Part shown: positions 2,669 to 3,321 of the stretch, piece by piece
Layout: each line of letters opens with the position of its first letter
Position numbering within the stretch: the stretch's first letter is position 1
IMG/VR virus record: IMGVR_UViG_2671180755_000015
DNA from: a virus
Lineage: Duplodnaviria > Heunggongvirae > Uroviricota > Caudoviricetes
Length of the DNA: 9,584 nt
Strand: one strand, 5' to 3'
Notes under the pieces: generated by a model
Told to the model about the DNA's origin: nothing
The model's database searches: none
The model's input: the letters and a program-made list of their open reading frames with translations, nothing else
Program-made: the position numbers and the translations under genes

Positions 2669-3079
2669 TCAGAAAGGAATATTGTCACCGTAGGGGTCAT
2701 CGCCTCCAGCTGGTGGCTGATTACCCTGTGTGCCTGTGGTTGTACGTCTGCTCCCGCCAGGACGTGCAGCACGGGCACTGATTACGCTGTCTGCGATAAC
2801 CTGCCAGCCCTGCCGAATTTCACCGTTCTGGCTTGTCCACTGGCTAACCTGTATCGTGCCGGATACGCTGGCAACATAGCCTTTTTGATGTTTAGCCAGG
2901 TAGTCGGCCTGCTTGCCAAATGCGATGACCGACAGCCATAACGTCGCCTGTCCGTCCTGTGCCTGGCTGCATGGCAGCGATACCGCCATACGAGCCAGCG
3001 TCATTGGTGTGCCCTTGCTGGTCTGTTTTACCTGCGGGTCGTCCACCAGCCGCCCGTAAGCGGCTATCTGTGCCGTCAT
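2669..3079 (-). CDS. ssb: Single-stranded DNA-binding protein (SSB)
   Basis: 136-aa ORF. The N-terminal OB-fold region aligns by eye to bacterial SSB (IAAYGRLVDDPQVK... and WLSVIAFGKQADYLAKHQKGYVASVSGTIQVSQWT...). Gly/Pro-rich linker and acidic tail ending DNIPF (compare SSB ...DDDIPF). ATG overlaps the upstream stop (ATGA); SD GGGGG. Confidence 0.85.
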   Translation of the reverse strand: MTAQIAAYGRLVDDPQVKQTSKGTPMTLARMAVSLPCSQAQDGQATLWLSVIAFGKQADYLAKHQKGYVASVSGTIQVSQWTSQNGEIRQGWQVIADSVISARAARPGGSRRTTTGTQGNQPPAGGDDPYGDNIPF

Positions 3080-3321
3080 ACTGCCCCCTCTCCGGTTTTA
3101 ACGTTGATGGTTGTTACCTGTTCCGCTTCGGCAATCTCCCGTTCTGTCAGCGTGGCAAAGTTTGCCGCTGCTGTGGTCATGAATGCGCTAATCAGTTCGG
3201 GATGTGCTTTCGCATATCCTTCCCCGGCGTTGCGGTCGATGATTTTTATCGACACCCTTAACCAGTGTTCTGTCAAATCAAGGGCGTGAGATTGTGGTTT
3301 TTTGGCGTGCTTCGTTGTCAC
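3076..3321 (-). CDS. Hypothetical protein (81 aa), GTG start, translationally coupled to ssb
   Basis: ORF begins with GTG at 3319-3321, preceded by GAGGT at ~7-nt spacing. Stop overlaps the ssb ATG. No family recognised. Confidence 0.55.
   Translation of the reverse strand: MTTKHAKKPQSHALDLTEHWLRVSIKIIDRNAGEGYAKAHPELISAFMTTAAANFATLTEREIAEAEQVTTINVKTGEGAV

Follow-up and report, generated by a model that had tools for sequence, protein, structure and literature searches.

We analyzed a 9,584-nucleotide (nt) stretch of DNA (IMG/VR virus record IMGVR_UViG_2671180755_000015; hereafter the window, to which all coordinates refer unless a locus is named) in which ssb, a gene for a single-stranded DNA (ssDNA)-binding protein (SSB), directly follows a small open reading frame (ORF) of 81 amino acids (aa). 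The window, which is 100% identical to Escherichia coli 2013C-3342 (NZ_CP027766.1), represents an EcCICFT073-type Gram-negative phage-inducible chromosomal island (PICI) of the helper-embedded kind. Our preferred reading, to which we assign a probability of roughly 0.6, is that the two genes are the distal part of the replication module of this satellite, in which the translation of an accessory SSB is linked to a functionally uncharacterized gene close to the origin. On the minus strand, pri is followed by the iteron origin, the 81-aa ORF, ssb, the terminator-like site, and cos.

All features of the gene pair lie on the minus strand. The ssb gene (2669-3079) encodes an OB-fold protein of 136 aa ending in DDPYGDNIPF. 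The 81-aa ORF (3076-3321), a member of phrog_1231, begins with a GTG start codon (3321-3319) that is preceded at a distance of 7 nt by the Shine-Dalgarno sequence GAGGT (3333-3329). Its stop codon overlaps the start codon of ssb within the tetranucleotide ATGA (3079-3076), and the G-rich Shine-Dalgarno sequence of ssb, GGAGAGGGGG (3093-3084), is located within the K-T-G-E-G codons that close the 81-aa ORF. A terminator-like site (2661-2643) consisting of the GC-rich hairpin GGCCGGAGAAAATCCGGCT and a run of T residues follows 8 nt past the ssb stop codon. The extent of the pair, the GTG start, and the DNIPF tail agree in full with a preliminary description of the locus made from the sequence, and the RefSeq annotation of the identical genome gives both ORFs exactly the same ends (WP_054408072.1 and WP_054408074.1).

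Co-translation of the two genes, as claimed in the preliminary description, was strongly supported by the comparison of the window with its relatives. The 4-nt overlap was identical in 76 of 83 related loci, and the Shine-Dalgarno sequence of ssb was kept as GGAGAG inside the upstream ORF. In one of the 83 loci the small gene and ssb abutted without overlap, and in three others (L036, L037, and L002) an insert of 311 nt separated them. Of these inserts only that of L036 was read through, L037 and L002 sharing the spacing; it contains a 101-aa ORF of unknown function (1214-1519 of L036) that is itself ATGA-coupled to the small ORF. From the conserved ATGA overlap and the internal Shine-Dalgarno sequence, ssb is predicted to be translationally coupled to the small ORF. 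A further ORF of 81 aa with a GTG start (2533-2778, minus strand) runs across the 3′ end of ssb into the cos-like region. Its sole match, to phrog_5188, is weak (30.7 bits) and covers the part overlapping cos, and this ORF is most likely spurious.

Upstream of the pair lies pri (3609-5441, minus strand), which encodes a D5-type (superfamily 3, SF3) primase-helicase of 610 aa with matches to D5_N, DUF5906, and Pox_D5 in Pfam and to phrog_864 (“DNA primase”; E 2e-192); RefSeq names the product “DNA primase family protein.” It is the replication initiator of the satellite. The AT-rich spacer between pri and the 81-aa ORF contains an iteron-type origin (3373-3595) with ten GGTGAACAG repeats in both orientations, one of which has a mismatch. 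Across the window 13 matches to GGTGAACAG were found compared to 1.7 expected, and a count of 13 was reached in none of 200 shuffled sequences. The published origins of Gram-negative PICIs are located 3′ of pri, and the layout is the same here (PMC6092414). The gene pair is placed right behind the ten iterons, in agreement with the earlier statement that it directly follows the origin.

The preliminary description had regarded an SSB as lying outside the usual gene set of satellites. We found the pair, with 90.6% nucleotide identity, in the prototype EcCICFT073 (strain CFT073, NC_004431, 1384284-1384948), and at a coverage of at least 80% it was present in 1388 of 5426 complete E. coli genomes, any match being found in 1845; it also occurs in an element of Citrobacter freundii. 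Moreover, the study describing helper-embedded PICIs lists “Primase, SSB and DUF5906” as a replication category of PICIs (PMC10111431), while the SSB is not discussed in the founding PICI papers (PMC6739421, PMC6092414). An SSB thus belongs to the normal equipment of this family of satellites, and the notion of an unusual addition had to be abandoned.

The SSB scored 56.0 bits with PF00436 (cut-off 26) and 56.4 bits with TIGR00621, barely above the cut-off of 53.95, and it matched phrog_44 (E 1e-38) and solved SSB structures (down to E 3e-10). Its identity to E. coli SSB is 28%, and its matches in sequenced phage genomes were all below 35% identity, none being a close relative. In an alignment with the host protein, three of the four ssDNA-stacking aromatic residues of E. 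coli SSB, W54, F60, and W88, were kept as W48, F54, and W81 and are invariant in the family. The fourth, W40, is replaced by C37, and H55, a residue of the tetramer interface in E. coli SSB, is replaced by L49. Residues ~104 to 127 form a linker rich in Gly, Pro, Gln, and Thr, which with ~30 residues has about half the length of the E. coli linker (~60 residues) and leads to the acidic Pro-Phe tip DDPYGDNIPF. The comparison with the host SSB proposed earlier as a check thus came out in favor of the OB fold, three of four aromatic residues, and the IPF tip, and against the protein at the positions of W40 and H55. On these features we regard the protein as a genuine SSB, whose OB fold is predicted to be intact and whose linker, short and flexible, leads to an acidic tip with IPF.

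The DNIPF ending had been interpreted as a variant tail that could alter the choice of partner proteins. Among 120 protein clusters the tail ended in DPYGDDIPF in 62 cases and in DPYGDNIPF in 27 cases, variants with G, E, or S occurring as well, and among 80 related IMG/VR loci the endings GDNIPF, GDDIPF, and GDGIPF were found 43, 17, and 7 times, respectively. The residue three positions before the C-terminal Phe thus varies (D, N, G, E, or S), whereas the Asp before it and the final IPF are conserved across the family. These counts indicate that DNIPF is a common allele of one family, like DDIPF and DGIPF, and no specialization of this element. A residue that drifts between D, N, and G inside a single family probably does not determine which partners are bound. 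A different ending, DDETPF instead of IPF, was seen in the SSB of L161 (NZ_CM132277.1), an E. coli island whose primase is of the DUF927 type. Upstream of its intact 153-aa ssb this island has three truncated ssb copies with a spacing of 713 nt (3867-6467 of that locus), apparently the product of a tandem amplification of the sequence preceding ssb.

For the small ORF, the numbers of variable sites at the three codon positions were 24, 10, and 52, and the ratio of nonsynonymous to synonymous codon differences was 0.34, compared to 0.88 for the first 100 ssb codons of the same loci. This coding signal, which is far above chance, points to a genuine protein that is subject to purifying selection. 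In the related loci fetched for comparison, the N terminus was of the ATG type (MTAKH...) in at least 68 and of the GTG type (VTTKH or VTTQH) in 43. The preliminary description had left room for the frame not being conserved in related elements; the purifying selection and the overlap retained in the 76 loci settle this point in favor of the frame.

The protein matched phrog_1231, a family of unknown function, over residues 2 to 79 with an E value of 3.8e-49, and searches of Pfam, NCBIfam, and PADLOC with the 81-aa protein gave no match. Close relatives fall into 163 clusters, all of them from Escherichia, Shigella, or Citrobacter. A profile search extended the family to 728 distant clusters at 50% identity with the motif IDxxFGEGYAKxHPELIAAFMxTAAxDF. 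All 80 aligned relatives, the window protein included, also match phrog_1231; they have no meaningful Pfam family in common, a stray match to COG5_N being found in 3 of the 80. Positions I28, D29, G33, G35, Y36, A37, H40, P41, and L43 are at least 90% conserved and make up the hairpin motif IDxxxGxGYAxxHPEL, which in the window protein reads IDxxxGEGYAKxHPELIxAFM and falls into the helical-hairpin core. Searches with tblastn of 50,697 phage genomes with the 81-aa protein and the distant relative P0253 returned nothing, and in a contig collection with one genome per species two loci with the 81-aa protein were found.

Two AlphaFold2 models of the protein were computed, the first with a mean predicted local distance difference test score (pLDDT) of 70.6 and the second, for which a deeper alignment was used, with a mean of 85.6. 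In the better model the block means reached 92 to 98 over residues 11 to 60, and the core is confidently modelled as a helical hairpin of two predicted helices (residues 9-32 and 41-69) with the conserved motif located in the turn. The last 25 residues of the protein, NFATLTEREIAEAEQVTTINVKTGE, are very conserved, specific for the enterobacterial clade, and missing from most of the family, and they were modelled at low confidence (mean pLDDT of 59 for residues 71-80 and 53 for residue 81).

Several known proteins were considered as counterparts and ruled out. RppA of EcCICFT073 is encoded elsewhere (c1503, 144 aa) and gave an E value of 0.16 in BLASTP; for Cnr of satellite P4 (ORF106, DUF5375) the hhalign probability was 0.2%; and the P4 ORF overlapping crr was rejected as well. 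We also dropped, as the principal interpretation, that the protein is a helix-turn-helix (HTH) regulator. A small HTH-like DNA-binding protein acting on the downstream cos, capsid, and late genes or on transcription across the origin appears very improbable: residues 15 to 78 match the cyclin/HTH repeat of archaeal TFIIB in a profile comparison, but this match is not significant (E 0.52), and the putative recognition helix falls into the low-confidence, clade-specific C terminus that most of the family lacks. The position of the gene at the boundary of replication and late genes would suit a regulator, as would the next gene in some phages, which is Q-like as judged from N-terminal sequences; the conserved part of the protein, however, is a plain two-helix hairpin without a Pfam HTH match.

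The preliminary description had further suggested that the 81-aa protein modulates the SSB as its partner. The adjacency of the genes, their coupling in 76 of 83 related loci, and the very conserved clade-specific extension NFATLTEREIAEAEQVTTINVKTGE encoded beside ssb speak for a dedicated SSB-binding modulator, combined in that view with a DNIPF tail that rewires the recruitment of host proteins. Nevertheless, the genes separate freely. In L160 (NZ_CM168017.1) ssb directly follows the origin and the small gene is absent. Conversely, ssb is missing from L162, where a RepA-type helicase gene and an origin are accompanied by the small gene, its C-terminal extension complete, and in L034 the small gene with the same extension is directly followed by PerC, ssb again being absent. 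Another ORF is inserted between the genes in L036 and L037. There was also no co-variation, as the small protein is 91 to 97% identical in IMG/VR loci in which the adjoining SSB ranges from 61 to 98%, a contrast that reflects mosaicism rather than co-evolution as far as can be judged from these comparisons. Finally, only 1 of ~25 distant loci examined had an SSB within 3 kb (L110), and L111, which has the same small-protein type as L110, is without SSB. Together with the allelic nature of DNIPF, DDIPF, and DGIPF, these results make a dedicated partnership improbable. The small gene and ssb appear to be independent modules, and the small protein does not look like an SSB-specific modulator.

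L160 is an element resembling capsid-forming PICIs, with a DUF927 primase and different iterons (TAACCCGCAAAA). At 4327-4562 of this locus, ssb is still preceded by the 3′-terminal ~30 nt (...ACCATCAACGTTAAAACCGGAGAGCAGACAGC) of the otherwise missing small ORF, the Shine-Dalgarno sequence included. This remnant is best explained as a recombination scar keeping the ribosome-binding site of ssb.

The genomic neighbors of the small-protein family were then compared. In enterobacterial satellites and several temperate phages, the small gene is the first gene after the iteron origin, downstream of a primase-helicase gene. Five initiator architectures occur upstream, namely D5_N/DUF5906, Toprim plus DUF927, Prim-Pol plus VapE, Prim-Pol plus DUF5906, and AAA_25/RepA. 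All 12 chosen gaps of at least 200 nt contained 5 to 13 copies of a gap-specific 8-mer, a count reached in 0 of 200 shuffles. As these gaps had been selected for a large upstream ORF, the test was repeated with an unselected non-redundant set. Iterons were present upstream of the small gene in all eight testable enterobacterial representatives and in 8 of 40 testable distant loci, compared to 1 of 40 for the downstream control. Despite the 12 of 12 chosen cases, the generalization that the small gene always comes first after an iteron origin was therefore dropped; its link to the origin is recurrent and striking, not universal. The variable basic N terminus of the small protein tracks the iteron type, a correlation that could be explained by physical linkage alone.

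Our low-confidence suggestion for the 81-aa protein is an accessory role in replication, with the initiator, the origin, or a conserved replication protein of the host as its target. For the family as a whole we offer, as a tentative possibility, that phrog_1231 proteins are an unrecognized replication accessory factor of replicons with an iteron origin and a self-loading primase-helicase (PICIs, capsid-forming PICIs, and temperate phages) of Gammaproteobacteria. Such a protein could couple the initiator or origin to a conserved component of the host replisome, or it could control copy number.

Taken together, the pair may work as follows. After induction triggered by the helper, transcription coming from pri would cross the origin and reach the 81-aa ORF and ssb, and ribosomes terminating at the ATGA would re-initiate on ssb, so that SSB synthesis would be tied to expression of the module. 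The SSB would coat the ssDNA that the self-loading Pri helicase lays bare, both at the iteron origin and at the replication forks. SSB C-terminal tips are docking sites for partner proteins, and the D-x-IPF tip may engage host SSB-docking proteins such as the Pol III chi subunit, PriA, or DnaG. The satellite would thereby draw on SSB of its own making while it replicates in a burst alongside the helper, and the terminator-like site would close the unit. The function of the SSB is probably accessory and not essential. Neither gene is expected to be essential, because the pri-ori fragment alone replicates (PMC6092414) and relatives exist without ssb (L162, L034) or without the small gene (L160).

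Several observations weigh against the assignment of the pair to the replication module. The pri-ori fragment of EcCICFT073, cloned alone, drives plasmid replication (PMC6092414), and the three relatives just named manage with one gene of the pair. Co-transcription with pri is deduced from a single finding, namely that the minus strand between pri and the small ORF showed no sigma-70-like promoter. For the SSB, the replaced W40 and H55 count against it, and its proposed properties (ssDNA binding, tetramer formation, docking through the tip, and a part in replication) are deduced from sequence. As to the small protein, 32 of the 40 testable distant members are not located beside an iteron origin, other distant contexts being next to a cI-like repressor gene, integrase or excisionase genes, or a DNA methylase gene, or just upstream of a DnaG-type primase gene. 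Foldseek searches of the PDB yielded no match below an E value of 1 (none for the first model and a meaningless one for the second, E 7.4), and a search of BFVD with the better model found uncharacterized phage proteins only.

Alternatively, the pair could serve conflict instead of satellite replication, in interference with the helper or competing phages or in anti-defense. The SSB could be a decoy titrating host SSB-binding proteins, for example, or the small early protein could be an inhibitor of a nuclease or defense system of the host. Neither gene is needed by the pri-ori plasmid (PMC6092414), and most of the distant members of the small-protein family occur in varied early-region contexts typical of host-takeover and anti-defense genes; the PADLOC search, however, was without matches. 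Interference genes often follow the origin in PICIs (PMC6739421), but the interference of EcCICFT073 with lambda was mapped to rppA (c1503) alone among the genes tested, which according to the primer table of that screen begin at c1499 (capsid) and apparently did not include ssb and the small gene (PMC6739421). The small protein, with 10 acidic and 9 basic residues, is not acidic and therefore unlike a DNA mimic, and the SSB has kept the aromatic residues for DNA binding and is encoded in the replication zone. We consider a role in conflict unlikely and prefer the assignment of both genes to the replication module.

The assignment of the window to a helper-embedded PICI follows from its setting, because the element interrupts the gene for gpA, the large terminase subunit, in a lambdoid prophage, as described for this group (PMC10111431). 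In a 25.3-kb stretch of NZ_CP027766.1 comprising the satellite and the flanking prophage (L001), the element has a length of ~10.3 kb and sits between two gpA pseudogene halves (7692-8822 and 19163-20161 of L001), co-oriented with the terminase gene; its right junction lies near positions 9562-9584 of the window. The gene content comprises an integrase (int, 8154-9392, minus strand), an AlpA-like HTH regulator (7937-8161, minus strand), a Bro-N protein, an Icd-like protein, a DUF4222 protein, the primase, the origin, the small ORF, ssb, a cos-like sequence, and a capsid gene. As in other PICIs, int, the alpA-type regulator gene, and pri are co-directional, the iteron origin is located 3′ of pri, and the element measures ~10 kb.

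Two putative helper-type cos sequences were identified. The first cos-like region (2475-2641) is 90% identical to the region of the helper prophage between the lysis genes and the gene for the small terminase subunit (L001 20665-20830) and also matches the ends of mEp460-type phage records. A second, weaker copy (13-111), 82% identical over 100 nt, is located downstream of the capsid gene. A tblastn search of L001 with RppA of CFT073 as query revealed no homologue (best E 0.13). As the cos region is 90% identical to that of the helper, the satellite may have no need for an Rpp-type packaging redirector.

Some further features of the element were noted. The satellite carries a gene (129-2018, minus strand) for a fusion of a ClpP-like prohead protease and a major capsid protein of 629 aa, which is 52% identical to the fusion protein of the helper prophage (L001 4012-5991), and a 75-aa ORF (2015-2242, phrog_4934) overlaps the start of the fusion gene. 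The minus-strand direction shared by the rest of the element is broken beside the Icd-like gene by two plus-strand genes (6442-6621 and 6679-6906), whose products are a YlcI/YnfO family protein (phrog_949) and a hypothetical protein. A search of the whole window with Rfam, which covers immunity RNAs such as C4 and isrK, gave nothing at the gathering threshold.

At the level of gene content the finding is already known, as both genes are annotated in RefSeq and SSB is already counted among PICI replication genes; our literature search turned up no functional study of a PICI SSB or of the gene upstream of it. The pair forms the usual end of the replication module in a satellite that is very common in E. 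coli, and it raises the question of whether satellites need their own SSB supply when replicating alongside a helper. A modest lead comes from the small-protein family, which with its 728 clusters and no Pfam entry recurs after iteron origins behind different primase-helicases; the small protein is a cheap and specific candidate for studies of how self-loading initiators connect to the host replisome.

Among known systems, P4 offers an analogy in concept only. Cnr (ORF106) is a small protein that modulates the P4 alpha primase-helicase, and it is likewise encoded beside a satellite primase-helicase gene. The 81-aa ORF is found downstream of the origin, whereas cnr precedes alpha, and the two proteins have no sequence relationship. 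RppA, RppB, and RppC of E. coli PICIs resemble the 81-aa protein in being small PICI proteins encoded downstream of the origin. The Rpp proteins, however, have ~144 to 153 aa, with an N-terminal winged HTH domain mimicking TerS and a C-terminal coiled-coil dimerization domain (PMC6739421), and RppA (c1503; 144 aa, winged HTH plus coiled coil) is encoded beyond the capsid genes; the comparison with RppA (E 0.16) places the 81-aa protein outside this group.

For the satellite SSB, the class for comparison comprises the homotetrameric SSBs of bacteria and those of mobile elements such as conjugative plasmids and temperate phages. Like E. coli Ssb, it is predicted to have one OB fold per chain, equivalents of W54, F60, and W88, a Gly/Pro/Gln-rich linker, and an acidic IPF tip; unlike that protein of 178 aa, it has only 136 aa, a linker of ~30 instead of ~60 residues, Cys in place of W40, and Leu in place of H55. 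Helper-embedded PICIs are inserted in a late gene of the helper prophage (PMC10111431), which here is terminase A. The closest counterpart of the whole arrangement is EcCICFT073. This copy differs from it by the GTG and DNIPF alleles, by the absence from the window of the PerC gene that follows ssb in CFT073 and related PICIs, by the lack of an rppA homologue in the element or its flanks, and by the ClpP-protease/capsid fusion in place of lambda E/D-type capsid genes. EcCICFT073 has two cos sites, as against the two cos-like copies here, and the gene order is the same, running from int and the alpA-like gene through the DUF4222 gene, the D5 primase gene, and the iteron origin to the small ORF, the ATGA-linked ssb, cos, and the capsid genes.

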